DNA from: Podarcis pityusensis
Taxonomy: Eukaryota
Length of the DNA: 64,000 nucleotides
Direction: 5' to 3' (one strand)
Assembly: GCA_964106645.2 (NCBI GenBank)
Contig: OZ067039.1
A model generated the notes under the pieces. The model was not told where the DNA came from. It did not search any database and saw only the letters and a list, made by a program, of their open reading frames with translations. Shown in pieces: positions 7,710 through 64,000 of the stretch (positions are counted from its first letter, which is position 1; every line of letters begins with the position of its first letter). The translations under genes and the position numbers were made by a program.

Positions 7710-10700
7710 CTGTGGCAAAGTAAGAAAACATCCTCATTAGGTCCTGCACGAACAGAGCTCCTAAGGCAGAACATTTCCTGCTATGTATTCTGGACAGAGG
7801 CAAAAAGGCATTGGGAGAATGTCACAAAGAAGACTACCTGAGTAGAAGGCACTTGGCAATGTAACACTGGTTTCAAAAGTATGTCAATCTGGAACACAAA
7901 ACATTTTGGAAACTGTACCTTATTTCAAAACTTGCACATCTCCTGTGGCTCAGGATCCGTGGTCTGGCTTTGCCAGAGAATGGGAAAAAAGGGTTGGGTC
8001 TCATAGAAATCTGGTGTGTAAAAGTAGGGGGGGGAGGAGCAATGAACAATTTGCAAGCGAGCTGAGCAAAGAAGGCCATCCCTTTGATCACTACCTTTCC
8101 CATTTTATCTTCTATTTTTTTTAGTAGATATTGGCACAGTGTTTTCAGGCACTTCTTTGCAACCCTAATGTTCAGGAACATGTGTTGTTGTTTTTAAGAC
8201 ATCCTGTTTGTAGGTGCACTAAATCGGATAAGCAGAGAATGCTCTACTGGAGGTGTGCCATAAGGATCAACAGGCAAAGGCTCCAAGTCTAGCCTTTGCA
8301 AATAATCTTGTCCCTTGTTTTATCAACTTTTGTATTTCATTCTGTAGACTGAGGATAACCTCAACCTCTTGTCTAAATGAAGCACCATTTTGACATATTC
8401 TCACTGAAGATGTCTAAAATATGCACAAATCAAGCCAGGTAAAGAAGTTCCATGAGCCGAGATGAAAGGAAAAACAGAGAAATGATTATTTGCCCAGATC
8501 TTCCAAGTTTTTAACAGCTTGTGGGGAGAGAGATGACATCTTCTAGGCTTTAACACTCTAGCTGCAAACTACTTATTAAGTTTAGCAGGGCTAGGTAGAG
8601 AGGCAGGACTCCACAATCAAGGTGAGACCTCTATGCAAAATCCCTGCAACAACCTTAGACATTACTAATTCTAAAGGGATGGAAGAGAACATGATCAGGT
8701 TACTGAAAGGAGCTGCAATCTGTTTTGGACCCACTGGCCTCCTGTGACACCCTTTGCTATGCAGATGAAACTTCCCTAAATGTCTCTGTCACTTCAAAAT
8801 GTTAATTGCCATGGAAGTCATCCCAGTTTATCTGTCCATTTTCCTCTCTACCAACGAAATCCCCTGTCTGCCCATCCCAGCAGCAGCATACAAATCAAAA
8901 GCCAAAGATGGATGGGAGCATCTAGCAGTGGCCAAAAATGTATATTTGGCTGTAACAAAAGAAGGGCTTAGTAAAACAGATTTGGTGAGAGGTTCACAAA
9001 AAAGTCACTAAAGATTAGAAAGAATTTGGGGATTTATCATCTGGATTACATGCTATGGCAAACATAATTAACATGAAACAGACATACACACACATCCCAT
9101 GATGGTATGCCAGGAAGTAACAAACAAGAACCGTGTTGTTATGTTAGAACTGGGATGAGATGTAATGAGAGGTCCCTGTCTATCACAAAAATATAAAATC
9201 ACCAGGCCCAGCAAAGGGAATGATGGTAAAGAAATGCTAAGTGTAGTGATGTTGAATCCTACATTTTAGATTATTAGCTGTGCTGGGGGAGTAAGAAGGC
9301 AGAGGGGTTGTAGGATTGCTGCTTTTGGTGGTAGCTGTAGGACATCTAGTTTCAGTCTAGGAATCAAATGGAGACCAGAAACTGCATTCTGATTCTGTTA
9401 TGCTGTGCATCTGTTGGCTAACTAAATACAATCCACCATTAATCAAACTCTTCTAGTTTATTTTAATTGCTCATCAAGTTCTATGTGGTAATCAGGTAGA
9501 ATACTAAAGTAAATTTGTCAACTTTGAAGATTCCAGATTCTTTAGAGATTATGATTCTTTCTTTTAAAAAAAAACTCAGAAAAATCTTATGTACATCAAA
9601 AAATTCTGGGCAGGCATTCCTCTAGCTCCCCAAGGAATACAGACAGGGCGGGGGGGGGGGGGGAGAGAGAGAGCGAGAGGGAGGGAGAGCGAGCCTCAGG
9701 AGAAGCACACTTTCAGTTCAGAACATGCAATGCCCAGGTCACGTGAGAGCATGTGGAAGCTCCTTTGTGCAGGTACTGAGGAACAAGGGAGAGGACCTAG
9801 ACCCGGAACGCCAAAGGGGTGTGTAATGCCTCCTGTTTTAGTATAAGACAGGCTCTGTCCACATCGGAAAAAAGAGATTTGAAGTCAGTGGCATTAACAG
9901 AGGCCTCCCACAGTGCTGGAAACTGCATAACGCTTGGCTGTGTCCCAGCCAAACTCATCAACAGGCAATCTCGTCATTTGCATGCGAATCCCCGAGGGCC
10001 TGGGGTATGTGATGGATTTAAGGGATTAGACAAAACTGAGACATCATGTTGCATCTTCCTGCTGAGAAATCACATTGCCTTAGCACTTGCGCTGCTGCCA
10101 TGGATTACAACCTCCCTGTCAGAAATAAATCAGCAAGGAGGCTGAACGCAGACCTCTACCGCAAACAAGATGGGCAGTGCGCACAAGGTAGCAGGCAAGT
10201 GCATCAGAGGGTGCCAGGGCACCAGGATGCTGATCCTTATTTCATATGCCGGAGGTTAAATGTCCACAAGGCATTAGCTGGAGGAACATCAGTGACCAAT
10301 GCGAAGGGAAAGGGCCAGCTAAATTATCATATGGTAAACAGACCAGGTTTAATAGTGTTTTGACAAAATAATTATATACCCAGTTTGTCATTACTTAAAG
10401 ATGATAGTATAATTGAAAACTAAGGGCTGCAGCAAACTGGGGCCCAGTGAATGATTCAGGAAAAGTGGCCTGTCAAAAATATCTGAATGTCTGCATTCCA
10501 GTTAATACTGGGAACACCCATAAATTTTAGTTAACTATGGTTTGCACCTATGTAGCGTAGGCTTCGTGGCAAAGGGGTTCTCTGTAACACATACTCTGCG
10601 CTCGGGGGGGGGGCACAGTTACCTTTTGAAAGAACAGGATACTCCTGAGAAACAAGCTCTAAGAGGTACAGATGTGTAGTATAGACCAGTGTCTCTTTTT

Positions 10701-47040: not shown

Positions 47041-47415
47041 CTAGAAAGGAGGGTGAAAAATGCACACAAGTGATTTGCCTTCGAAAATGTACGTTCCTAA
47101 TTATTAAATCAAACTGACTGCTGCTCCACAGAGTAAAATATATAAATGGACACTTCCATGTTAATCTACAAAATGATAGCTAAAGGTGAAATCATTCATT
47201 AGCCGTATTTGGGGCTGTTAACATGGTGAAGATTAACAAATGTATTGTGAGCTCACCTTGTCAGATGCATTTATGCCTTACAGAAGACTGGCTAGAATTC
47301 CAGATGGAAGCCTGTCCCATAACAAACACCTCATTTGAACTGCAGAGGGGGAGTACAGGGCAGGGAAAAATGTGAACAGGCAATTCTGTAGCCCAAGTAT
47401 TTCTGCTTCACTTAC

Positions 47416-47540
47416 ACCAAGGCTCTCAGCAATGGCCTTTCTCAGAAGCTCTTCCTCTTCCTCCTCTTGCGAGTTCAACTGCCTGGCTTCTTGCTCGCTC
47501 ATTTTCAGAGCCAGGGCAAACTGTTCATCTTCCGTCATCT
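47416..47540 (-). CDS. UIMC1: UIMC1 exon encoding the tandem ubiquitin-interacting motifs (UIM1-UIM2)
   Basis: [41 protein letters not shown] is near-identical to the RAP80 UIMs and keeps the linker SQ site. Acceptor ttttttcag, donor gtaagt, 125 bp. Confidence 0.98.
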
Positions 47541-50500
47541 CTGAAAAAAGTGAAAAAGAAAAGCGTAACACAATACAATGCAGCAGGCTCTCATTCCTTA
47601 TGCCCTGAAGAAGGTGCCTGGGGACTTTCACCTTCACAGGGAAAAAAGGCCAACTAAATTGGATCAAAGCTGTTACATCTCAGCTTACCTTGCTGTGTGC
47701 CTTCAAAACTGGAACAGACAGTGCTAAATGCAGAGTAATGCATTTTGTGCAATATCAAATCACTGAACCAAGTCAGGGCATTTAGTTAAGGTTCCCATAG
47801 TGATCTCAGCTTTGACTCTTTGGTGAATTCATCACAATGAAATATTTTATCACATAATCATCTGGCAGCGACCCTGTTTTGTACTTCCACATGCAATACT
47901 ATCATCAAAGGGCACAAAGGAAAAGCGGTAGACTTTGAACACTGAACTGTGCATGAACAGACTTTTTCTAAAAGGCACAGTCTGCTGGTAGAGCACAGTG
48001 AAGTTAGTTCCTTTCCACTCAACATTATTATTAACTTTAAAAGTCATAGTGCTCTGTGGTGTATACTGCCAAGCCTCCTGAAATGTAAACGGGCAAAGGT
48101 CATGAGCCACATTCGCCTGGACTGGTGCAAAAAATTAAAAAAATAAAATTAGAAGAACAACCTGGAAAAGGCAGAGAATGATCTTCAGATCTGCACGCTT
48201 TCCTACCCGAGATGAGACCACTCTCTCCCTACCTATACAAAGTTATTCCCTAAATGATTTTCTGGGACATACTAAAAATCACAAGCGTTGCGAAAACAAA
48301 AAAACAAAGCTGTTCTGGAAAACACCAGGGTGTGTGTTTTTTTAGATTTCTGACCCACCACTTTCACTTAGCTAAAAATATCCAAGCCTGAAAACCAGAA
48401 TGAAAAAGAAACTCCAGCAACTCCCCTGCTTTCTGAGAATTTGAAGAGCACATTGAAATGCTCTTCAGTCAAACCATTGTAGGTTGATTCTGAGCAGCAC
48501 TTTCTGAGAAATCCTCTCTCACACATAACAACTCTTAACCCAACAAGTGCACCTGAGCACAAAACACCATAGAAGAAACTAAAGAGAAGAGCTTTGAAGA
48601 AACAGATCACCTTCCAGACACGGTGAATACCTCAGATTCCTTTACTGTAAAGTGTTTGGACACCAAAGCAATTAGGACGCCATCACAGCCTCCTCAGGAG
48701 CATCTTCTCAACACATGAGAAATGCCTCCAGAGGAAAGCTCATTTGTAGATTACTGAACCTCATCACTCCCTCTTTCCAAGAGAAAAGCAGCAGGTCTAA
48801 ACTGAAACATGGACTTTGCAACACCCCTTGGATATGATCACAACTATGAATAAGCAACTATGTGACACAATGCAGTTTCATTTTGCCCTGCTTAATGGGC
48901 ATTAGCTTTCCTACAGCTGAGTTTAAGACAGGGGGGTGGGGGCAATGCCCCACCATGGGTATAGTATCAGGGCACAATAGCCTAAGTTTATTTATTATTA
49001 TTTTCTTAAGAAAATCTCTAGCCCTCCTAGAAAGAAACCTATGAAGCAAAATATGCAGGTATCCTTCTAAGCAATTTCTGTGAAGTGAGCCAGCCTGGCT
49101 GCTCCCAGCTGTCTGTGGGTTTAGCCTATGAGTGATGTCAGAGCTGCGATTGATATGCAAGTTGTTTGGACACCAGGCAGGAGGAATATCTGGGGTTCTT
49201 TAGTGCACTTTCCTGCTTCTGTCTTATTCTATAGTAGTCCTTGAGATTTCCAGAGTTGGCCCTTCCCTTTTTCCTGGTAACCAGGATGCACCTGTGGTGG
49301 GTTCATATGAGATCAGGTGATGATCTGCAAATACTACTACACAGTAAGTGCAACTGGTTGTTAAAGAATCCCTTTCCTGAATAGCAAATGCAAAACGTAC
49401 AAATTTTTCAAATACAGTATGCTTAGGTGTGTCTCCTGCTGTGCAGGGCCTAAAGCCAGACACTCATTATGTTAACTTTCAGTACAATGCTATACATGTC
49501 TACTGAAAAGTAAGTCTCTTTGGGATTAATGGGGCTTATTCCCAGGTATGGGTCTACAGGATGACAGCGTAGGCTTTGGTTTAAGTTTGGCACTAAGAAA
49601 ACAGGGTTCTTGTGCCTTTAATAGCTGTATGCAGAAAGAAGCTGCTGAGTTATTCCCCCCCCCCCCCTTCTTAAAAGCAACAGTGCTTTGAGCAGCCATA
49701 TTATAGCTTTACCACTGGAATGTGTATTCTTGTACATATACAGTACAGGGGCCTGGACATCCTCAAGAACCAGCAGAATATTTTATAATAACTGGAATTC
49801 ATATAATAAGATACTGGCAGCAAAACTGCATTATCTGATTGCAAGGGATCTAAGCAGAAATTAATGGACATAGGATCACAATCATCAGTTACCTGTTCTC
49901 AATCTTTCACTTAAAAAAAAAAAACAACCAATGACTGCATAACCAGACTGTCAACAACTATAAAACACAATGCAAATGAAATTCCATCTAAGAAGCAATA
50001 TGGTGTATCACGCTGCCAGGGAGTGAAAAAAAGGGCATAGTAAAATGGAACACGGAAGAACTCTAGACAAGAATCCTTCTGGCATATCAGAGAGAGAAAA
50101 TAAACAACATTTATTCCACTTTCCAAATTCACGGGTGCATTGAAAAGGATAAATCTTTGCCCCCCACCCACCATGAAATACATCCAACTTGCACGACAGT
50201 GAAAGGAGCAAGCCATCTCCCTGAGAGAAGCAGGGCATCTGTTCTGTCAAAGCCATGCTGCGTATCTCTGGCTATCATGTATTATTCTGCTTAACATCTG
50301 ATCATTTCTAAACGCTGTCTGCAAACGCTCACAATTTGTGTGCGCTTGATGTTGATTACATTGGTCATAATTTATGATGATTAGAAATTCTAAGTATTGC
50401 GTTAGCCTCCTACTGGTGTGGGCAAACAGACTATTTAAGAGCTCCAAGACACAAAAATAGAAGCTGAGCTCTCAGAAGCAAGCACTGTCTGAATGGTTTG

Positions 50501-52402
50501 GCAGGTAGTCTATACAACCAACGTCTAGCAGACAGAAAACCATTTGCATGCCCTTTCGGACACAAATTATGTGCTTGCACATATGTGCCCACGAATTCTG
50601 AATAGCTCCATTATAAATCTTGAGGGGTTTTTTGTTTGTGTGCTAAAGTCAGCATAGTTTCATTGTTCCAAAGCTAGGCTCCCACTACACTCCTAGTTCC
50701 ATTGATAGGTAGAAATGTCAGTGTCATATGATCAATCCCACCAAGAAAACATGAGGAGGGGGTGTACATACACTGTTTTTAAAGACATTACAGCCTTAAA
50801 CAAATTAAACTAGTTCTGAGCCTTTTTACATGCTAATATGCCAATTTACTACACAATTCATGTTTCAGTTGGACGTTTGAAAACGAATTAGATGCAAAGC
50901 ACCACCAGTTCCGAGTTCTCTTGCTAACAGATTCCCCACCCCCACCCCCAAAAATGTTGGCTGTATTACACTCACAATCATAGTGAAATTAATGTACAGT
51001 GAAAAGAGGTTTACTGTTCTAGAAGACACACATCAGAAACATTCCAAAGAAAAGGATTTATGTAGGTTTGTATATTTTAATCTTAGCTTGTTGAGAATAT
51101 AACGTCACGGGTGTATTTGAATTATAGCTCAATGTTAAAAATGATTAAAAATTACAAAGTCAGAAAAGAACAATGTGCCTTAAACACTAACAATATGAGA
51201 AATGTTCCAGCTTTGGAAATTGGCAGCACATGCGGGCCTTATTTCTCCACATAGGATGAAACCAGACGTGACATTATTCACGGATTAGTAGTTGGGTGAA
51301 TGTTTGTTTTAAGTAAATAGTGGTCATGGGGAAATGCCAACTGCAGGGAGGGGGACTTTAACCTTTTGCCCATACCCCAGTTCCAGCCCCTGCCCCCAGT
51401 GATTGCTGTTTGCATTGGGAGGAAAACAGCCTTTTCTTGAATAAAAACATCACTACCACTATACACAGTTATTAATTGCTTGAATAAGTCTCAATTGGCC
51501 TAGATAGGAGGGGCCAAACAATCCCACCCTCCCTAGGCAGCCTCATCTCCAAGAGGCCAATTTGTCATAAAACCCAAGCAACCCTTTAAAACACTGACAG
51601 TGGTTTATATTTCAAAGAAATGAACCTTAATTTGCCTAAAAATAAACACTAAAAGGCTAATTATAGTTCTAATAAATAAAAGAGCAGACATGTAAGTGGA
51701 TGTGCCTAATTAATTATTGCTAATTGACTGCTCTAATGTAGTAGGTATGAGACCTGCATCCAAAGGAGCGAACTGATGAGGAGACTCACTACCTTTGCTC
51801 ATGCCAATTATCAAACGCAGTTCTAAGACCACATTCTGCTGGATGCTGGACTGAGGATCTAGCCTTGTGCTGCCAGCGGCAAATGGATTCTACACATTAC
51901 AGTTTCAACACGAAACATGGATGGCTTCACGTTAATCTCTCTCCTAGGTATTCTGTACACACAGAGGATTTCAAGCCTTCTTGCTCACATCTGTGGGCCT
52001 TTAGCTTGTTTGGAGTACTGAATATGCACTTCTTTCTTCCTACAAAGGGATTTGCAGAGAGGGCTATTTGCAACCTACTTCCCATCTCCTCCATTTGGAG
52101 TTTATCAGGTTACAACCACTGCTTGGGGTCCATTCAGAAATGTATTCCATTATATTTCCAAATCAGACGCTCCTTGTAAAACCAGCACCGCTCACAATAA
52201 ATCTTGTGAGTTGGAGCATACTTATAAACTGCTGCTGCAAACTTACAGCAATGGGCTCAGCTGAGGAGATCTAACCAAGACTACCTCTGTGAAACAGCAT
52301 GTTTCTAGAAGAACAAGATCCTGGAATCACAGCAAAGAATTTCATTTCACCAATAAAGTAAGTTACAGCCAGTGTGGTGTAGTGGTTAAGAGCGTGTAGT
52401 GT

Positions 52403-52643
52403 AGCCAGTGTGGTGTAGTGGTTAAGAGCGGTAGTCTTGTAATCTGGTGAACCGGGTTCGCGTCTCCGCTCCTCCACATGCAGCTGCTGGGTGACCTTGG
52501 GCCAGTCACACTTCTCTGAAGTCTCTCAGCCCCACTCACCTCACAGAGTGTTTGTTGTGGGGGAAGAAGGGAAAGGACAATGTTAGCCGCTTTGAGACTC
52601 CTTAGGGTAGTGATAAAGCAGGATATCAAATCCAAACTCTTCT
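52403..52643 (+). mobile_element. CORE-type tRNA SINE (Squam3-like) with an extra duplicated head upstream
   Basis: A-box TGGTGTAGTGG, B-box GGTTCGCGTCT, CORE gggtgaccttgggccagtcac, L2-like tail, CTT end. Possible TSD TTACAG at 52363-52368 and 52643-52648. Confidence 0.85.
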
Positions 52644-53170
52644 TACAGAGTCACCCAGAAGGCTAATTACTGAATAAACCGCATGTACTCTTGCCCTAAT
52701 AACCAATCAAGCTACAAGCAAGAATATTCTGTCCGTGAGACACTCACTGTAACTCTACACACCAACTACAGTTGTCTCTGGATAGAGCTTAGCTTCAAGG
52801 TCTTCTTATCCTGTTTCTCATCTCACAGCTGCCATATAACATAGCCCTTGTTCCATTGTCTTCATAGAGGAAATGGATAGTAATGTCGTACTTTGCATAA
52901 ACAGTGACAACCTTGGCAACCTTACAAGGCTCTTCTCCTTTATGCCAATAGATATGCACAATGACACTTAGCTGTATCATATCTATATGCATCTGTGGTG
53001 ACATTGTTTATCCGCATACAATGTCAGACCTCATACAAAGCGGCTACTTTTGACTTGGTAGGCCCTGGCGTATGTGTTGTGCAAAGGCATATGTAAGAAA
53101 CTCCATACAAAAAAACCAGTGTACTGCTCATTCTCCAGCTCCCACATTCCCCTGCGCAGATGAGACCTAC

Positions 53171-53258
53171 GTGCTATTTTCCTTTTTGCGGCAAACTTCA
53201 GTCTATCCAGCTGCTGCTTTGTTCTTTTCTTCTGCAGACCATGTTCCTCCTTGGACTC
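53171..53258 (-). CDS. UIMC1: UIMC1/RAP80 coding exon (first one found in the window): ESKEEHGLQKKRTKQQLDRLKFAAKRKIA
   Basis: Resembles human EPKEENGLQKTKTKQSNRAKCLAKRKIA. Acceptor ttgCAGCAG (alternative start 53261), donor gtaggt. The phase-1 end joins the next exon as C|AG (Gln). Confidence 0.93.
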
Positions 53259-54519
53259 CTGCTGCAAGAGAAGAAATATGGTAAATACATAAACTACAGA
53301 AGATGCTACCATTTGCCACCCTTCCCCCATCCCTCCTGCCTCAACCTTCATCCAAATCTCCAAGCCCAGGGAAGGGGGAAAAAAGAAAAGGAAAAGCTGG
53401 CACAAAGGCAGACTCCTCGACTGGTGAGAAATGTGACTTTCAGACACAAATAAAAGAGTATTCTGTAGCTATTAAAGGAGCTGTGTGGTAAGTATAATGA
53501 GCAACGAGGGATGCAGGCAAACGTGTAAACAGATTAGCAGCAAAGGACAATAGACCTCATGTCAGTCACTCTCATGCAGAGTACCAGCTGCATAGGATTT
53601 TAACAAGAAGTTGTTTGCTTTTACATTCAGGAAGTTATAAAGAGTGAAAATGCAAAAGAAAAACTTGATGAGATCTTCCAGCAGGGACATCTAACAGGGC
53701 AAGGTGCTTTCTTAGTACAGCTGGAAAGGTATCATCCAGCAAAGTTGATTCCCCAAAGGCAAGGGGCACTTAGTTAATAAGGGGGGGGGAGAACTCCACA
53801 ATCTAATGCTGTTCACTATGAGACGTCACCCTCCTATGTATCATACTTTAGACTGATAACTTCTTTTATTTCCCTCTGAAGGAAGGGGGGATGGCACATC
53901 CATCAAAATGGCTATCATGCTATGGCCTCCCTGAACTGACAACTAAGTACATTTTTAAAAGTCAACAGTATGAGCATTTGTCAGGGACAGTTAAGATTTA
54001 AAGGATGCAACAATGGAAGCACAATTGCAAGCCATATCCAAGCAGAGAAAGAACAGGAGAAATTGAACATGACACATAACGGCGACGCAGGAATCTTTTT
54101 AATGACTGAAGAGACTAAAATGGAAACTGACCAAAAGGAGGAGAGACAGATTGCTAAGGTCAAGAATACTGATCCAGCACAGGAGTGTAAGGCTGGACAA
54201 AAGTCAGAAAAAGAAAGGTACACAATGAGTTGCAACCAGCCAGAGACAGATATTTTTATGTTGCAAACGAAGAAAGGCATCTCAAGTGTGTTGTTTACCT
54301 CAGAAAAAGATACCAACAGAGTATACAACAGAGTGCAACATCTATTTTAAAAAAGGTGAAGTACTGAAACAACTAATGATATTAATAGAAACAAAAATTG
54401 AAGAGAAACATGAAGTTAGTAGCAGAAAAGAGCATGTAAAATAATATTTGGGCAATATGAAAGGGACATTCTACACAAATTTGAATTCAGAGAATTGATA
54501 TGATTCACAAAGCCTACTA

Positions 54520-54761
54520 CAGTGGAACCTCGGTTGTTGAACACTTCAGAAGTCGAACGTTTCGGCTATCGAATGCCAACAACCCAGAAGTGAATGCTTC
54601 CGTTTTTGAACGCGCCTTGGAAGTCGAATGGCTTCTGAGGCGTTCTTCTCCATTTTTCTCAATGGAATTTGCCGACCGGCAATTGCACCTCGGCTGTTGA
54701 ATGTTTTGGAAGTCAAATGGTCTTCCAGAATGGATTACGTTCGTCAACCAAGGTTCCACTG
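54520..54761. mobile_element. Tc1/mariner-pogo-type MITE, same family as 22582 and in opposite orientation
   Basis: TIRs CAGTGGAACCT(C/T)GGTTG, TA on both sides, and shared internal aacgtaatcc..tggaag motif in reverse. Confidence 0.88.
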
Positions 54762-54981
54762 TACAGGGTTGGTTTTTTAAAAGGGCTAAAGAAGATAGAA
54801 CTAGGGATTCAAAATGAGGCAAATACTGGTAGAATCGTTTAGCGAAAAACAAAGCCAACTCCTCATAGCAAGTGTAGTGATGTTACAGAAGAAATTATGG
54901 CAAACTGATGGGCAAAGGGTGATGAAGTAGTGGATGATCCACCACTTCCAAAGCCCTGAACGATTGCACTGATCAGGACAG

Positions 54982-54984
<3 letters not shown>

Positions 54985-55014
<30 letters not shown>
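54985..55014. repeat. (GT)n microsatellite
   Basis: Direct observation. Confidence 0.95.
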
Positions 55015-55017
<3 letters not shown>

Positions 55018-55773
55018 TACAATATATTTCCTGTTTTGTTTTAAAACCAACAACTTCCCATTGAAATTAATGGCAAGGGAAATGACTCAGCTGGCTGGCC
55101 TAAGTAATGGGACTGATCCTGTGCCTCTTAGGAGAGCACTGGGGCTTTAGATCCAGTGGATCCCAGGCTGACTGTGTCCCACTTCCATCTGTCCCCATGA
55201 AACCAAATATTGGGGGCTAATAATGGCTTCCACTAGCCAAAACGCCACTGGCAGATCTACAACCATGGGCACGGCAGGACCTCTGCGCTGAGCGTGGTCC
55301 TCCCCTTGGCTGAGAGGTACCTCTGTCTCATCCTAAACCATCTCTAGCCAGCAGACCTGGGGATTAGAAATGCTGTTAGTTCTCTTCTCTTGTCAGTTAA
55401 GTATACAGGTGGAAATTATCTAGGCTGCAATCTACAGCCCATAAATACACAACACCAGCACCACACATACAAGGATTTCCTCCCACTCTTCAGCCAGGAA
55501 TTGGAAAGTCCTGTTAGTGTTCACTAAGCAGCCTCACAGCCCCAGATATCAACAAGGATATTGATCCAGCCCCAAATCGCATCCTCTTGAGCAAGGATGA
55601 ATTATGTGGACTAAATGAAACAACCATAAAGTGGGTATGCAAGTGTCTAAAAATAACTGCACTCAGTGGATAATAATGAATTGACATAAAAGAGAAAAGA
55701 GGTGGCAAGTGGAGTTCTGCAGTGAGTTCTGGGGCCTGGGCTGTTTAGCTTCATAAATAATGTCAGGGAAGAG

Positions 55774-55985
55774 TTTCCAGAGGAGCAGTAGTATTCATCT
55801 GTTGTAGTGAAAAACAACGAAGAGTCTTGTAGCACCTTAAAGACCAACGCATTTATTATGGCTTAAGCTTTCATGGACTACAGTCCACTTGGTCTATGAA
55901 AGATTATATCTTTGTCTTTGAAAAGCACTACTAGACTCTTTTGTTGTTTTTGATGCAAAAGACTAACCCGGCTATCTGTCTGAAA
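55774..55985. mobile_element. Penelope-like element remnant as an inverted pair
   Basis: aaaaacaacgaagagtcttgtagcaccttaaagacc and its reverse complement tagactcttttgttgttttt, with a partial hammerhead (stem II plus GAAAGCTT). Confidence 0.7.
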
Positions 55986-56169
55986 AGGTTGAGGCAGTGG
56001 CATTGCTGAGAAGGCAGTCTTAAGGCAAGTAAGAATACAAACAAGAAAAAGTGGGGAGGTGGGGGGATGAAAATTGCCTGGAACTCCTCAGGCAGTCGTG
56101 TTCCCCTCTCAGCATCTGGCAAAACTCATCTCTGTGGCTTCCCTGCCCACCCCCTCTTCAAGCGCTGGG

Positions 56170-57256
56170 CCTCACGGGCCTCACCATCTTGGCGCAGCAG
56201 ATGCTTCAAACACAGGCGGTTTCAAACATGGCAACAGCGCCACCTGCAACAAGACAGGGCTGCTGTATTTTTAATACAAGCACTACAGGAGGAAATCCAG
56301 CAGGTGAAGCTCTTATGACCAGGACTTGTAAACAGGGGCATTTGCAAGGTTGTTTAGTTTGAAGGGGAAGTCTGGAGCTTTCTCACAGTGTGTGGGGAAC
56401 CAAGAGACCTGGAGAGTAATGGAGCTGCTGCAATTACCAGCAACATCTGTGCCATGTTTGTTTTCCTGCCTAAGATCGGGCAAAACTACACATGTAGCAA
56501 GTGCAAGCTGACTACCTTGCTGGAAGAGAAGGTACAGCAACTTGAGGCCTGCCAACCACATTCTGAGCTATCAGGCAAGATGAGGAAATTCTCACTAGAC
56601 CAGAGTAGACTATCTTGGAGCAGAGATGAAGGCAGGGAACCCTAGGGAAGAGCAGGATCACCCAATACAGGAGGCAACCCCCTGAAGGAACATAACACAA
56701 AGAAAGCAGGACTGTCAGGAGCCATGTTTTGTCTCTGGAATGGCAAAATCAATTCCATGCCCTCACCCTGGACACCGATTCTCAGCCAGAGCAGCAAGAA
56801 TAGAAGTAGAAAACCCAAAACACACTGAGGTGGCAGTGAACAGAACAATTCCTGCTGCTCTCCATAGAAGAAAGTGATGTGTGGTGGCAGCAGATGATTT
56901 CCTACTGAGGGTGACAGAGGCAGCAGTGTGCAGAGGAAAGACTCATTGTTTCACTTGTCTCTACACTAATGCACAGAGTACAGGAAACAAGCAAGAAGAA
57001 TTTTCACTCTTAATACAGGTTGGCAAATATGATCTTTTAGGCATTAGTGAAACCTGGTGGGATGAAACTCATGACTGGAATGTAGAAACTGAGAGGTATA
57101 CCCTATTCAAAAGGAATAGCCCATACAGGAAAGGAGAGGTAGCAAAATTATATGTAAAGAATGTGTACACTTATCAAGAGATCCATGACTTGAATGATAG
57201 AATGCAGACTGAGAGTATATGAGTAAAAATTGTAGGAGAGGGAAACAACAGTGACT
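56170..57256 (+). mobile_element. CR1 LINE 5' part: ORF1 (zinc finger/leucine zipper, esterase start) and ORF2 APE endonuclease, degraded
   Basis: ICAMFVFLP...YTCSKCKL..LLEEKVQQLE, VV..D..LLR.TE..VCR, CLYTNAQS.GNKQEE...YDL.GISETWWDETHDWN. Confidence 0.9.
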
Positions 57257-57267
57257 TGACTGTGGGT

Positions 57268-57375
57268 AGAAATATAAAAATAAAATAAAATAAAATGTCC
57301 AGTAGCACCTTAGAGACCAACTAAGTTGTTCTTGATATGAGCTTTCAGGTGCATGCACACTTCTTCAGATGCACT
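57268..57375 (-). mobile_element. Penelope-derived short repeat, copy B (degenerate hammerhead motif at 57335-57372)
   Basis: ccagtagcaccttagagaccaactaag...gagctttc..gtgcatgcacacttcttcagat. Confidence 0.8.
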
Positions 57376-57381
57376 GTGGGT

Positions 57382-57960
57382 TCCTAACAACAAAGGGACA
57401 TGGCAAAGGGATGGTATCTGCAATATACAAAATACTACTCTAAAATCCCACGAACACGCTAGACGTAATAAAAAAACATGGGAAGACGAAATAGGCTATG
57501 AGATTAGCCCCACTCAGTGGACCAGAATGTAGCCTAAACCCCCCTTTAAATCCATATCAACGAAAAGAAAAGAACTCACTCTGAAACTTACCTAAGGGTG
57601 GTACCTAACACCAAGGAAACTAAGCTAATACGCTCAGGAACCTCACCAAAATGCTGGAGAGGGTGCACCTCCACGGGCACATACCTCCACATGTGGTGGG
57701 AATGCCTCCAAATCCAACTATTCTGGACAACAGCCATACAAGAAATACACATACATTAAGCAAAATAGAAATATCGCCTCCCACCCCCACCCCCACCCCC
57801 CATGGCCCCCTCTGCCTCTTCCACCCTTTTTCTTCCTAATGTAACCCTAATGTCTCAACAAATGAAACTGACCTATGGAAAATGTAACTTGAAAAAAGAG
57901 ACATTGTGCATACCTTTGTAAACCAAGAAAACTTTAATAAAAATATTTTTTTAAAAAAAA
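57382..57960 (+). mobile_element. 5'-truncated L1 (ORF2 C-terminal zinc knuckle, 3'UTR, polyA)
   Basis: WYLTPRKL / SPKCWRGCTSTGTYLHMWWEC (CCHC, with a frameshift between the two blocks), AATAAA at about 57936, A-tail. Approximately 15-bp imperfect TSD agatgcactgtgggt/agattacactgttggt. Confidence 0.85.
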
Positions 57961-58057
57961 GAAGATTACACTGTTGGTGACTGTGGGTAGAAATATATAA
58001 AAAGAATAAAAAGAAATTGTCCAGTAGCACCTTAGTGACCAACTAAGTTTGTTCTTG

Positions 58058-58095
58058 GTATGAGCTTTCGTGTGCATGCACACTTCTTCAGATAC
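58058..58095 (-). ncRNA. Minimal type I hammerhead ribozyme motif in Penelope repeat copy A
   Basis: Minus strand GUAU-CUGAAGA-A-GUGUG-CAUG-CACAC-GAAA-GCUC-AUAC. It has the conserved core, a 5-bp stem II, palindromic AGCU stem III and a 4-bp stem I. Confidence 0.75.
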
Positions 58096-58109
58096 ACTAC
58101 ATTCTTCGG

Positions 58110-58345
58110 ATACTACATTGCCTGCGAAGCCAGAGTGAAGGCTTGGATGATACCTTCCTAGATCAGATTACCAAACATTCAGTACTGAGAAAGTGATCCT
58201 GTTCTCTTGGGTTTCATTATACAGAGACAAGGGAAAGCTGAGTGTAGTCAGACATGCACTCTGGAATTTAAGAAGGCTGGTTTCAAAAAGCTTGAACTAC
58301 TGGGTGAGATCCTATGGTCAGAAATATTCAAAGAGAAGGGAATGG
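58110..58345 (+). mobile_element. Continuation of the CR1 endonuclease after the Penelope/L1 insertions
   Basis: SQSEGLDDTFLDQITKHS, then FIIQRQGKAECSQTCTLEFKKAGFKKL.LLGEI.WSEI.KEKG. Confidence 0.8.
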
Positions 58346-59488
58346 TGCTTAATGTATTGCTGGTGCATAATGCATTGGTCACATCTATAAGCTATATTTT
58401 TGCAAATCATGCTTAATTTTGTGGAGTTCTGTTCATGTTTTCTAAGTACTCCTGGCCCCTTTGGAATGTGAACCTGCTATGGTGTGTGCTTGCAGCTTCT
58501 CACTATTTAATCTCATCTATGGATTTCATTAGTGCATAGATTTTGATAATTAATTTAGACGTTAAACAACAGCAAACCCAACACCAGTCCCTTACTCTCT
58601 GTGCTGTTACTCAGAACTGAATTCACTGCTGTTCTATGCTACCCTTTGTTTTGAGCTTTTAAAAAATTTCATCCCAGGAGCATGCCTCACAAACTAAGTG
58701 CAAGGCATAGTATTATACGATTCTCCAAGTCCCAATATGCATTTTCTTTCACTGCTTTTAAAATAATCAAACAAGCAAGCCATTTAGTACAGAAGTAGTT
58801 ATTCACCACTCCCTTTCCACTCACTTAAGAGATAGCACTTCCATTTATTTCTCACAGTACCTTCCAGCTTTAATACTAATGCTTTTTAAAAAGGCCTTAT
58901 TCCCTGTCATATACAAATTCAAAATATGGTTCATTCACTCTCTGAAAAACAGGTTCTTCTCCCAACACAGTTTACACTCCATGCCCTGCTTAGTCCAAGA
59001 GTCTTCAACCCGGCATCCCTTGTCCTCTGAGCTGAGCTGCTTAATCTCCCTACCAGACCTGGTGACACCACCCTGCTTTCACCTGCTTGTAGGCTGCACA
59101 CTCACAAGCTCTAGTCCCCCATTGGCTCTCCTCTTCCTATGGTTTCTAGAAATATTTCCCCAGCCATTCATTTGCTTTGACCTGAATAAAACTGCAGAAA
59201 GCTTGCCTTCGGGACTACTTTCTTCTGCTGCTTTATTTTATTTGTTTGATTGTTTATATTCTACTCTTTAAAATATTTCCTCCAAAGCAGCTTAGAAAAG
59301 TCATAACAGTTAAAAACGGGGGGGGGGGGGGAGGAGGTAAAAACACATCAGCATCTCTGGTATCTGCCACTCAGATTTTGCTAATCAAAGGCGAGAGAGA
59401 ATAGCCTCTGATACTGAGCTCTGGCAAACTAATATTGGTACAAGCAGTTCTTGCACCAGATAACCCTTCAATACTTAAATGGCCTAGA

Positions 59489-59811
59489 CAGTGGTTCCCA
59501 ACTAGCTAAGTACTACAGAACCCAGTTTTTCAAAAGCCAAGCCATGGAACCCCTACTTTTGAAAGTGTTCTATCTGGGGTAGTTTTTGTTATGTGAATGT
59601 TGCCACTATACCCTCCAACATGTCCCAGTGCAAAACTGGGAAGCCCGTCTTCTGGGCTGCATGCCCACATGAGTCACGTGACCCACATGTTTTGGCGTTC
59701 CATGCTCTCACACGAGAGCATGGCTTCCCAAAACAGAATGTCCCAGACAGTTGACGGATATGTGCCACGGACCCCGAGTGGGTTATGCAGACCACCAATT
59801 GGGAACCACTG
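59489..59811. mobile_element. hAT (Charlie-like) MITE
   Basis: Perfect 13-bp TIR CAGTGGTTCCCAA, with CCTAGA on both flanks (TSD-like). Confidence 0.85.
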
Positions 59812-59819
59812 ACCTAGAA

Positions 59820-60040
59820 CAAAATCAATACCAGCTCTTAAAACTGAGCCCAGAAAAACTGGCAACACATGTAGTTGGTATAGAATCAGTGTAATAAGTC
59901 CCGACTGCCTTGCTGCTACCACATCCTGGCAGGTGTGTTCTGAAACAGTTCTGGCTTCCCAGGCCATTTCTAAAGCCAGCCCCATATAGAGAGCACTGCA
60001 GTGATCCAGGAAGTTACATAGGGGCTTATCTAAACATATG
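59820..60040 (-). mobile_element. Degraded L2-clade ORF2 fragment
   Basis: LDHCSALYMGL.L...ITLILYQLH.LP remnant. Confidence 0.65.
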
Positions 60041-60879
60041 CCCCCCCCCACCTTCCACCTGCAGTCCTAATGTGCAACAGTCAAGGAAGGACTGTATTAC
60101 TTGCTATTTCTGCATATTTGAATTGACCCCTGTTTGGAAGTAGGTAAAGGATTCTCTGAAAAACCAAGTAGATTTGAAAATCCATGCAGACTGAACAGGT
60201 AGTGACTGCTGATCCTGCAACTTGGAATTCGGTAAGTATGTAATGCAACGACTGGATGTTCACCTAGTGCACATCTGATCCCTTTAAAAAATTTGCTTGC
60301 AGACCACTCAGAGTCTACCTGCTAAAAGGATTAAGAGAGCGCCTGGAGGTACGTTTGCTTTCCATGTTTAGCTTAATGCGTTAAAGAGGACAGGCAGCCC
60401 AAGGGCCTTGGTTCTATCTACGGGGAAATATATTTTTATGACATAGAACTAGAAAGAAAAATAAAGATATGCTTTCCTAGAATCAGATGATTTTGGAGCA
60501 GAAAATGAATATGTAATCTATTTGGGTGATGGAATAACAACAACATATAATCTGTAAGTTGCATACTTCTTTGCTTTGACCCCCCACCTAAGAAGCAATT
60601 TATAAACAGGCAGTGACCATTTCGCACAAGAATTCTGCTCCCAACCTCTGCCCCACCTTCCATTCCATTCTGCTCTGCCCCAAGAGGACCCATGAGTTGG
60701 CAATTGCATGGCAATTGGACACACCTAAAATGTACCTACCTACCTGGGATATATACAGTGAAATGATCTGTCATTTCATTGTTGTTGATTGATCCTTGAC
60801 TCTAGCGGACCAATAAATGAGCATGGCTCAGTAGATAGCAGATGAGTTGGTTTTAGTTACCCATCCCTGATTTAGACCC

Positions 60880-61075
60880 ATGCCTACCTTAAGTATGATC
60901 ATTTCTACTTTAACTGCCCCTAACTGATCTTTGTCTCTACTGAAAAACATCCAACGGACGAGGTATTCCCAAACCTCTCTTATTGAGTTCTTAACTTTTC
61001 TCAGTTTTGAACGTGATGTTAAAAATCTTCCCTCCTTCAACAAAAGTCCATTACTTCCTGTCAGTTGCATTTCTG
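60880..61075 (-). mobile_element. Highly degraded CR1 3' fragment
   Basis: TGSNGLLLKEGRF...REV.....L..F resembles the CR1 RTRSNG.KL.EGRFRL..PREVV motif. Confidence 0.5.
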
Positions 61076-62277
61076 CTTGAACAGCTATAGAAAAAATGTA
61101 CATCTATTAGAAAGTGGTTGTCATCTCCAGGCTCCACCATCAGCCTTTTCTACTAAGTCTTATTTTCAAAAGCTTTACCCTTTTTCTGCTCTTGATTTTT
61201 CTCCCAAGTCCGTACTAAGGTCTGACTAGTATGGAAGAGAATGAAACAATGATTTTCTGTCATATGGAAGCAATGTTTAAAATTCTGCTAGTTCAAGTTG
61301 CCTTTTGGGCATATCAGCATTGCAACATACTTATTTAGGCTATACAGTAGTTCCCTAGAACCATGCAGATTTTTCTAAGTGGAGCAATTATCTAACCAAT
61401 TTTGTTAATACGACATTGATTTTTCTCTTGTTCATATAATTATGCTTGTCTTAGGAGAATTTTGACTTCTGCTCTTCCATTTCCCAATGTGTTAAGAACA
61501 TTTAGGGCCAGGATATTGTTTTGGGCTTGTGGTTGGCTGAGCTAGTATAGTAAACCAAGGACACTAAGCCAGCTATAGTCTAACTTCTGTGAGGGAAAGT
61601 AAAGCTGTCAGTTTTGCTGGAATCAAAAATCACTTGGGTAGGCTGAGGACCCAGGACAAAGACAAAGGGAGCCCAGAGGCAAGGCAACTGAAAGAATGAT
61701 ACAGAGTATAGGGAATAGACTTGAGAAAGTTGAAAGTGTGGTGTTTTGAGAAAAAGGGCAGCGACGACACAGAACTGATGCAAGAAGAAGTAAGTCAAAG
61801 AGAAGATCAACAGGGGCAGTATGCTATGCAGAATGACAGGAGGAGTGCTAGGGAGGACTGTCAAGAAATAAGGCATGTCGAGGTAGTGGTAGAATCTTAA
61901 CTTTGATGGGGGAATTCTGTCAATGGTGACTTCTACTAGAAAGCAGGGTGGTGAATAGTCATGTGGAATTTATTCTGGCTTTGCATTATCTGAAAATACT
62001 TCAAGAGTGACTATCTATCTACATTTTGGGCTTCCAGATATTGTTGAAGTCCAGCTCCCATCAGTCCAAGCCAGCACAATGGGAGGGCCACAGGGTAGCC
62101 ACCTCTGCTCTACTTCATCTAACAGCCTGCCCCTTTAGAATTCTGCAATTCTGTATTTCCTCCAAGCCATGATCAGATGTACAACCATAAGCATCTACAT
62201 GATTTTTTTCCAGGTGAGGGGCAAAGTAAATATTCCAAATAAATGAATAGCACCAGAGAAAGGGTCTACTATTTCTG

Positions 62278-64000
62278 TTTTTTAAAAAAATAATATTTAT
62301 TAAAAGTTTAAAGATTACAGAAAGAAGTAAAAAAAGAGAAAAAGTAAACAATACAAATCAATACATTACAATACATAAAAAACAAAAAACAAAAGACACA
62401 ATACATCAAAACAAAAACAAAAGCAAAAACAATTAAAAACACATCCAATATTTCCATATCTTTGTCTTTCATTAACTTGTTTCATCGACCTCCTCACACC
62501 TCCCTTTTTTGTATTCTAGTTATTAATTATTTCAGCAAATCCTTTCCATCTTTCACTGTTTTCTGTCATTTAATTGTCTTGATTTATTTTAACCTTATCT
62601 TACCATTAAAACCCTAAAACTTATTTGAACTTAACTCCTTATAACGTTTCTACTAAAGCCATGTAATTTCATTCCAACGTTTTTCTAACACTCATAAATT
62701 TTACAATATTTCTCTAAATAAATTTTAAACTTTTTTCCAATCTTCTTTCACCGTCTCTTCTCCCTGGTCCCGGATTCTGTCAGTCCTTTCTATCAATTCC
62801 ATATGGTCCATCAACCTGGTGATCTTCTGTCCGAGGCTCTTAACTCTTTTCCATGTCCCTTCTGCAGATCTTCTTCATATTTATACATGCACTTAACTTT
62901 ATCTTCTGCTGATCTTGTTCTTAATTTCCTTCCTTTGGCACTGAGGAGTAGATCTCGGGGAAACTCCAACCTAACAATGTCTTTATTCCTTCTCGACAGG
63001 TCAGCCCATTCTCCATAGTCAAAACTAAAGTCCATAAGATATTTCAGAGCGTGTTTCAAAATCCCTCCGAAGCTAAAGGCCCCCACAACTCCAATCTCCC
63101 CCTGACCCAAATCCAGATCCCAAAAGCCAGAGCATCCCTGCATAAGGGGATCTATCCAACTTTCCTTCTCCAATCCGAGCGGGACTCCATCCCTCCAAAT
63201 CTGGCTTTCTCTAAATTCAATCGTAGAAGGCAACAGCTTATATTCATCAAATTGCCTCTGAACAGCTGGGGCTCTCTCCACTTGTATTACTTGAGGTTCA
63301 ACAACAGCTTTCTCCCTCGTCTTCTCCACAACTTGCCATGTCAAAGTGGATTCCTGAATCGATTCCTGAGTAGTTTCTGTATAGGTATTCACTTTTTGTC
63401 CCAAATCAGTCATTTTTTGTCCCAAATTATCAATTTTAGTAGTCATCACATCCGTCTTCTCATGAAGCTGTTCCAATAAAGCACTTATCTTGCAAAATGC
63501 AATCACTAAGGCTTCTTCTGTCGACATTCTTGTCCAAGGTCAATCTCTGATTCTCACTGTCTTTAATCTCTGCAGCTGGAAAATTCCCCAGCTCCACTCC
63601 TGCAACAGTTTCAAAAGCTCCCTCTAGAGGAAACAATTTCGATTTGTATCCGTCCTTTTAAACGCAGATCCAGCAACAAAATTAGTTTCAATTTTCAGCT
63701 ACTTTTGCTCCTTTTTAAGTGCAAAAGGAAACAATGGAAACAATATATTTCTCTTATTTAACTGTCTGTCAACATACGTTTTATTCACAGTCAATGAACT
63801 TTCCCAAAACGTCGATCTTACTGGCAGCCCGTTCCCAGGTTCAAAACGGTGGTAATTTATCTTTCTTCACTCTCTCTCCTGCAGGCTTAGGCAATCTAAA
63901 ATTTCCCCCCTCTTCTCCTGCTTCCAAGGGGGGTTTAGTAATTTTAACCGATGGAAATTTAATCCTTTAGAAGAGGCTTTCCAAGACTTTAGCTTGCAGC
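62278..64000 (-). mobile_element. Non-autonomous L1-derived element (half-L1-like); 5' end runs off the window
   Basis: A-rich tail with AATAAA (62301-62296), T-rich 3'UTR, L1 ORF2 C-terminal remnant (RIRDQG..E...EDWKK...YLEKYCK) at about 62700-62810, and a single ORF1-like ORF. Confidence 0.8.
62811..63527 (-). CDS. Transposon-encoded 238-aa ORF with an N-terminal coiled coil (L1 ORF1-like), lacking RT and EN
   Basis: ATG start. Heptad pattern ISALLEQLHEKTDVMTTKIDNLGQKMTDLGQKVN. Lies wholly within the L1-derived element. Confidence 0.55.
   Translation of the reverse strand: MSTEEALVIAFCKISALLEQLHEKTDVMTTKIDNLGQKMTDLGQKVNTYTETTQESIQESTLTWQVVEKTREKAVVEPQVIQVERAPAVQRQFDEYKLLPSTIEFRESQIWRDGVPLGLEKESWIDPLMQGCSGFWDLDLGQGEIGVVGAFSFGGILKHALKYLMDFSFDYGEWADLSRRNKDIVRLEFPRDLLLSAKGRKLRTRSAEDKVKCMYKYEEDLQKGHGKELRASDRRSPG

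Follow-up and report, generated by a model that had tools for sequence, protein, structure and literature searches.

The window analysed here is a 64,000-nt stretch of the Podarcis pityusensis genome (G000:C2:69688001-69752000), and the adjoining DNA was also examined for gene structure. The minus strand carries part of UIMC1 (RAP80), in which a nest of transposon fragments contains two units of ~110 nt; both hold a minimal type I hammerhead in sense orientation to the UIMC1 pre-mRNA. The features, with PLE standing for Penelope-like element, are as follows:

47281..47679, minus strand: reading frame with the UIM exon of UIMC1 (RAP80_UIM, E=1.9e-24)
53171..53261, minus strand: second coding exon of UIMC1, which closes the hammerhead-bearing intron (3' boundary approximate)
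56918..57267, plus strand: old CR1-type LINE fragment, 5' part (endonuclease region), the insertion host, ending in ACTGTGGGT (81-84% to the 39 paralogs scored)
57259..57267, plus strand: target 9-mer ACTGTGGGT, also at 57373-57381 and 57980-57988; an empty site in the CR1 paralogs
57268..57372, minus strand: Penelope pLTR stub B; its 5' truncation lies immediately upstream of the hammerhead (identity to either end of full-length PLEs 87-88%)
57335..57372, minus strand: hammerhead B, minimal type I, damaged, C17 at 57339 (stem I with G-U and C-A, stem II with G-U and U-C)
57367..57381, plus strand: likely L1 TSD, 5' copy (15 nt)
57382..57962, plus strand: L1 3' end, 5'-truncated, with ORF2 end, 3' UTR and A-rich tail (88-91% to ORF2-end paralogs, 88-95% to 3' UTR paralogs)
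57963..57978, plus strand: likely L1 TSD, 3' copy (16 nt, 3 differences from the 5' copy)
57989..58097, minus strand: Penelope pLTR stub A, with start, truncation point and subfamily as in B (86-89% to full-length PLE ends)
58058..58095, minus strand: hammerhead A, minimal type I, intact, C17 at 58062 (4-bp stem I, 5-bp stem II, palindromic AGCU replacing helix III)
58098..58119, plus strand: templated junction scar, in which the element end plus the first bases of the flank appear twice (58086-58103, again at 58104-58119)
58122..58341, plus strand: CR1 fragment, 3' part, resuming where 57267 breaks off (paralogs read 57267 straight into 58122)

The first coding exon of UIMC1 lies outside the window, ~21.7 kb beyond the hammerhead pair (extended coordinates 79904-79773, with a GT donor), and matches the beginning of a UniRef RAP80 protein (labelled Podarcis muralis) at 100% identity; in that protein the exon beginning at 53261 comes directly after exon 1. 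Together with the RAP80_UIM match, this exon order and the strand confirm the host gene and orientation proposed in the initial annotation, and, by gene structure, place the hammerhead pair within a 26,511-nt UIMC1 intron, sense to the pre-mRNA. A PDB search with exon 1 gave no match. The same intron also holds a copia-type LTR retrotransposon (L043:7169-10000 onward, extended ~70900-74650) with integrase and RVT_2 in two long frames separated by a stop, and on the opposite strand another PLE end, with a hammerhead motif in which U replaces C17, lies just past the upstream CpG island of UIMC1 (L045 ~9237-9512, extended 93237-93512). Elsewhere in the window, a 242-aa frame on the minus strand (62814-63539) starts with a coiled coil and gave no Pfam family above the cut-off; it resembles a LINE ORF1 remnant.

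Over 121 nt the two units share 90% identity. In minus-strand orientation, copy A (58095-58058) reads GUAU-CUGAAGA-A-GUGUG-CAUG-CACAC-GAAA-GC-UC/AUAC and copy B (57372-57335) reads GCAU-CUGAAGA-A-GUGUG-CAUG-CACCU-GAAA-GC-UC/AUAU, with the slash at the predicted cleavage position, which places the two C17 residues (58062 and 57339) 723 nt apart. Copy A has all features of the minimal hammerhead, i.e. the CUGANGA and GAAA..UH core, stems I and II, the palindromic 15.2-16.2 and G10.1-C11.1, whereas copy B retains the core letters but has G10.1-U11.1 and a U-C mismatch in stem II and C-A in stem I. The initial annotation had described a ~120-bp unit present twice, an intact copy A, a copy B with mismatches in both stems and the same two cleavage sites at the same distance, and the sequence, core, stems, palindrome and coordinates agree with it on each of these. 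When compared with the majority of nine loci of the same subfamily, copy B is off at 6/83 positions, four of these in the hammerhead helices and none compensated, and copy A at 1/83, the two copies differing at 7/83 positions.

The hammerhead motifs are not a product of chance, yet they are not rare either: the loose pattern CUGANGA..GAAA has 13 matches in the window against 6.6 expected (2/100 shuffles reach 13), and the genome is rich in the full motif, with 1,039 perfect matches to the 34-nt core taken from A and 11,868 matches when up to 3 mismatches are allowed, as many as separate B from A (reversed-pattern controls 0). An Rfam scan of 50000-64000 with E up to 10 gave no hammerhead match for either copy, which is to be expected since the motifs have no helix III, and is not counter-evidence. 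Amniote intronic hammerheads are single-copy, have canonical helices with loop contacts and are conserved across distant amniotes; the motifs in UIMC1 belong to a high-copy minimal repeat. A third, older Penelope-related relic in the same orientation (55829-55873) was rejected as a partner, being truncated before the CUGA box.

The Penelope origin that had been proposed for the units was upheld by their matches to the terminal repeats of elements with reverse transcriptase and GIY-YIG domains, from which units A and B are identified as pLTR stubs of an endonuclease-bearing (EN+) PLE. In all three long copies fetched, to the ends of which both units were compared as listed above, a single 951-965-aa frame is bracketed by two motifs of like orientation at a distance of 2,993-3,010 nt. 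In the one long element scanned this frame matched RVT_1 (E=3e-12) and, just under the cut-off, GIY-YIG (E=2.4e-4); a shorter copy matched GIY-YIG with E=5.8e-6, and in one sampled copy the GIY-YIG frame lies directly upstream of the motif. There are at least 150 genomic matches to the GIY-YIG frame, with 99-100% identity among the matches listed. The Cys-rich linker ahead of the GIY-YIG domain resembles that of the Neptune clade, to which the lizard element may belong. The family looks young, with numerous copies at 99% identity, of which several combine an open frame of 951 aa with terminal repeats that are identical (828/828 nt at locus L161); given so many near-identical copies with long open frames, a helper protein may be present.

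Copies are dispersed and mostly 5'-truncated, often with an inverted 5' part. The sample was drawn from the first 100 exact-core places listed, all of them on contig C1; 90 were taken and two that overlapped a neighbour removed, leaving 88 loci, a set which is biased to intact copies. Truncation within 12 nt of the core was found in 64/88, with the mode at the GTAT of stem I; 30 of these 64 fold back, 13 repeat at least 8 nt of the left flank, seven re-copy their own end, which is the type of scar seen next to stub A, and 20 have none of these. Within 1.5 kb, 20/88 loci had a second full motif in inverted and 2/88 in direct orientation, with about one direct pair among 88 expected by chance at genome density (our arithmetic). 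Direct pairs are uncommon per copy, while low hundreds should be expected genome-wide, and every full-length PLE is one. Both A and B belong to a minor subfamily (9/88 loci) and have start and end in common, and therefore point to one event or one local duplication as their source.

Cervera & de la Pena 2014 (PMC4209133) describe minimal hammerheads in the pLTRs of metazoan PLEs, reptiles (turtle, snakes) included; most of these are truncated copies that stand singly, and their monomers were inactive and their dimers of low activity. The lizard motifs share with these, as far as the accessible text of that paper goes, the type I arrangement without true helix III, the palindromic 15.2-16.2, the extra base before stem II, the 4-bp stem I and, in copy A, G10.1-C11.1; they differ from the Schistosoma families in the same paper (stem II 7-8 bp) in their 5-bp stem II, and from the PLEs described there in having an L1, and not a PLE ORF, between two direct stubs. 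The reptile alignments in its supplements may list this PLE family. Another comparable system is the Poseidon element PAc of Anolis carolinensis. Frangieh et al. 2024 (PMC11167929) report that its hammerhead cuts only in the presence of the PLE protein and is not needed for insertion in vitro, and that no RNA-seq ends fall at the hammerhead site. Both are lizard EN+ PLEs with the hammerhead at the pLTR-ORF junction, insertions starting at fixed internal sites and uncut RNA as template (the stubs here span C17), but unlike PAc, only ~105-nt stubs remain at the UIMC1 locus. No paper on the UIMC1-intron locus or on this lacertid PLE family was found, in a search whose scope ended before subscription papers, supplements and Repbase/Dfam.

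The nest itself was resolved by comparison with paralogs. The 11 nt opening each unit (TGACTGTGGGT) are host CR1 target and not element sequence, and the 9-mer ACTGTGGGT stands ahead of B, behind B and ahead of A. Pfam returned no family for the CR1 and L1 fragments, and the labels come from paralogs and characteristic motifs: from the look of its translation we take 56918-57267/58122-58341 to be CR1 endonuclease, and from a Cys-rich ORF2 end plus tail we take 57382-57962 to be L1. The latter lies on the plus strand, i.e. antisense to the UIMC1 pre-mRNA as initially described, and has an internal deletion of ~480 nt at 57747/57748 which is absent from the paralog copies scored. It combines the 5' truncation, A-rich tail and short TSD of L1 target-primed insertion, with the TSD imperfect (57367-57381 vs 57963-57978, three differences), again as first read. 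A rough 5'-end search in 24 L1 paralogs, the targets of which are not strictly A-rich, gave exact 11-16-nt TSDs in 10/24 loci (two being one duplicated insertion) and ≤9 nt in the other 14. Two L1 loci on G000:C13 (L148 and L158, ~24 kb apart) show the same insertion, TSD and flanks twice, as in a local segmental duplication.

The junctions indicate that most likely the stub pair was already in place when the L1 inserted at its joint, as had been suggested, and this is supported by the 15/16-nt repeat and the family TSDs of 11-16 nt; since neither an empty nor an L1-less allele was seen, the order of events is read from the junction sequence. We consider it very unlikely that there was one original stub, of which the L1 insertion itself generated the second by duplicating ~120 nt of target. 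Such a duplication would fit the 11 nt of host flank and the ends shared by both units, as well as the A-B divergence of 7/83, which is of the order of the L1-to-paralog divergence (5-12%), but it does not account for the 15-16-nt repeat that immediately flanks the L1, and the TSDs seen in this L1 family measure 11-16 nt.

In DNA contigs of three related organisms from three studies (X2, X10 and X11), the CR1 flank, the scar and the adjacent end of stub A are present with 0-3 differences, and the A junction thus predates the split of these three; a piece from X6 (17 differences, 5 gaps) and one from X3 (first 29 letters unaligned) were omitted as ambiguous. Among the pieces listed none spans stub B or the L1 junctions, and among the joints listed none skips the L1. 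At window positions 57959-58014, contigs in runs X6 and X11 join an L1-family tail directly to a PLE stub start, and they probably stem from the insertion of a stub into an A-rich L1 tail at different loci.

We then considered whether the pair could fold and cut as a dimer, in which each core cuts the site of its partner. The core of A and the 3' strand of B form four pairs (G-U, U-A, A-U and U-A, site 57339), so that this pairing, proposed earlier with the G-U included, passed the check; the core of B on the A site (58062) has A-C in stem I and a stem II without G10.1-C11.1 and with U-C. Constrained folding of an 831-nt transcript gave costs of 14.3 kcal/mol for site B, 28.3 for site A and 34.2 for both, in a model which ignores tertiary contacts and proteins and in which all dimers are unfavourable, so that only relative costs are usable. 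With the B letters set to those of A, the same model gave 16.7, 18.9 and 23.5 kcal/mol (site B, site A and both), and two natural direct pairs required 25.9-37.7 kcal/mol per site. The changes in B add ~9 kcal/mol at site A and ~10 kcal/mol to double cutting, without penalty for single cutting at B. Leaving the L1 out resulted in about the same costs (13.6, 26.0 and 31.9 kcal/mol), and in this model the L1 neither makes nor breaks the dimer. The MFE fold of 58130-57300 has no special stability (z=-0.86) and leaves the hammerheads unformed, while in the unconstrained ensemble the dimer stems have pairing probabilities of 0.01-0.19 and the complete fold makes up ~1e-10 to 1e-9 of the ensemble. 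As modelled, the A core may cut B. Because each core cuts its partner, a cut at A needs the damaged B core, which makes a double-cut 0.72-kb RNA unlikely; the release of such an RNA had been predicted, but was not borne out, as it depends on a B core with lost G10.1-C11.1, U-C and A-C.

The description of the layout as retrozyme-like is likewise not supported. Animal retrozymes are multi-copy tandem repeats with canonical type I motifs that are expressed as circles (Cervera & de la Pena 2020, PMC7229834), and Li et al. (bioRxiv 10.64898/2026.07.22.740005) derive retrozymes from PLE pLTRs, with retrozymes present in 4/5 reptiles and 1/9 Xenopus dimer elements cutting in vitro. The UIMC1 locus shares with the animal non-LTR retrozymes, as they appear in the accessible text of these papers, the direct orientation of type I hammerheads, the relation to PLEs and the non-coding nature, but unlike them it has no head-to-tail repeat of one unit with a complete hammerhead in each, is not multi-copy, carries minimal instead of canonical hammerheads, one of them damaged, and yielded no circular RNA in two RNA runs of a relative with nil coverage of the locus. 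The 723-nt interval is made up of stub, scar and L1, and is unrepeated. The CR1-stub junction was found in only two genomic places, both in the window, and the stub-L1 junction once; the stub was present in 0/35 L1 loci, and 1/88 stub loci has a distant (68%) L1 piece ~1.3 kb off. Since the tested junctions are single-copy, the stub-L1-stub composite is no retrozyme family.

An individual retrozyme-like unit, with both sites cut and the 723-nt RNA antisense to L1 circularised and perhaps re-inserted or used against L1, is likewise extremely unlikely. The distance between the same-strand hammerheads does fall inside the 51-972-bp range of vertebrate non-LTR retrozyme consensus sequences, and a derivation of retrozymes from PLE pLTRs has been proposed (both from the accessible text of Li et al., bioRxiv 10.64898/2026.07.22.740005); against this, the composite is single-copy, the L1 between the stubs is a separate insertion that has a TSD and a tail of its own, the cut at A by the damaged B core costs 28.3 kcal/mol and that at both sites 34.2 kcal/mol, and there is no back-joint in the RNA runs of the relative, in which the locus has nil coverage.

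For RNA, two raw runs of a relative were sampled at 12% and 6%, and 379 and 121 reads mapped, on the L1 or PLE repeat parts only, with depth 0 at 57150-57630 and 58112-58250. These runs contained no locus-specific reads, back-joints, RNA joints or pile-ups, which at nil coverage of the locus is uninformative. In a search of sequencing runs no RNA run was listed as containing the sequence, which counts neither way. In run X23, 12 RNA reads from other copies of the PLE family, ~4% of local depth, end exactly at 58061 and enter a sequence which we take to be the Illumina adapter. This end corresponds to C17 if the last base is a ligation overhang, and otherwise lies one base beyond C17. It is a hint at possible cleavage of the family in vivo or during library preparation, from one run in which duplicates, priming or tagmentation bias, labile CpA steps and cleavage in library preparation could all explain the ends, and it says nothing about the UIMC1 locus.

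These read ends bear on an incidental, one-sided ribozyme, in which the stubs would pair via AGCU and the A core would cut 57339 in the nascent UIMC1 intron, probably only with the help of a Penelope protein and with little or no effect on the spliced mRNA. The A core is intact, stem I between the 5' strand of A and the 3' strand of B is fully pairable in a nested topology with pairing probabilities of 0.01-0.19, its energy cost is the lowest among the dimer sites tested, the genome has intact helper ORFs, the 12 reads from other copies in the family stop at C17 or one base further, and amphibian hammerheads cut better as dimers in the accessible text of PMC7229834. However, the complete fold accounts for ~1e-10 to 1e-9 of the ensemble (in the model without tertiary contacts or protein), the stems have only 4 bp across 720 nt, minimal PLE dimers were of low activity according to the accessible text of PMC4209133, and locus-specific reads or ends are lacking, a weak point with locus coverage nil. 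On balance we regard such cutting as improbable. A wider version, in which sense Penelope stubs are live, protein-assisted cut sites in lizard pre-mRNAs, with A cutting the UIMC1 intron at B and the X23 ends being the first trace of cleavage in cells, appears somewhat less probable still; if true, thousands of stubs in introns would act as RNA break points conditional on expression of the Penelope protein. Should the one-sided reading be right, it would bear on whether minimal Penelope hammerheads cut in vivo and nick host pre-mRNAs, here of a BRCA1-A complex gene, although the UIMC1 locus makes a poor test bed because B is damaged, and young full-length elements would be better.

The reading we prefer, with a probability of about 0.86, is that of a single-copy pile-up of CR1, Penelope and L1 debris in a UIMC1 intron, likely without function; the motifs are of a known kind, and the locus is most likely ordinary passenger DNA and not a circular-RNA element. 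This reading is favoured by the abundance of the family, the PLE identity of the units, their typical truncation, the unique junctions, the L1 TSDs, the uncompensated decay of B and the literature. Penelope reverse transcription would have been primed at the CR1 site after ACTGTGGGT and would have copied ~105 nt through the uncut hammerhead, stopping at the usual truncation point of the family. The new strand may then have re-annealed on the target via ACT(G), with target bases re-copied and the stub laid down again, by a second round of reverse transcription or a local duplication (which are inseparable), leaving the templated scars. The L1 would subsequently have integrated at the stub-stub joint with a 15-nt duplication, followed by neutral decay, so that the pre-mRNA would carry the motifs passively, rarely if ever being cut, and would give no 0.72-kb circle. 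Five points can be held against the debris reading. The contrast between A (1/83) and B (6/83) is what retention of A might look like, but this is not significant (two-sided binomial p ~0.13, our arithmetic); the modelled folding does not single out the cutting of B by A as dead, because 14.3 kcal/mol is below both the 16.7 kcal/mol with the B letters set to A and the 25.9-37.7 kcal/mol of the natural direct pairs; the PLE family, with its many 99%-identical long-frame copies, may supply the helper protein; direct pairs are uncommon (2/88 loci within 1.5 kb); and the order of events is read from junctions only, neither an empty nor an L1-less allele having been seen.

As one of ~twelve thousand Penelope hammerhead stubs the locus matters little as found, while its three-layer nest records the way such stubs are laid down. 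Separately, the 5' truncation of the PLE copies peaks exactly at the 5' strand of hammerhead stem I, with 29/88 loci keeping exactly 4 nt, often followed by a fold-back, and this pattern suggests that the sequence or structure of the hammerhead stalls or redirects PLE reverse transcription.
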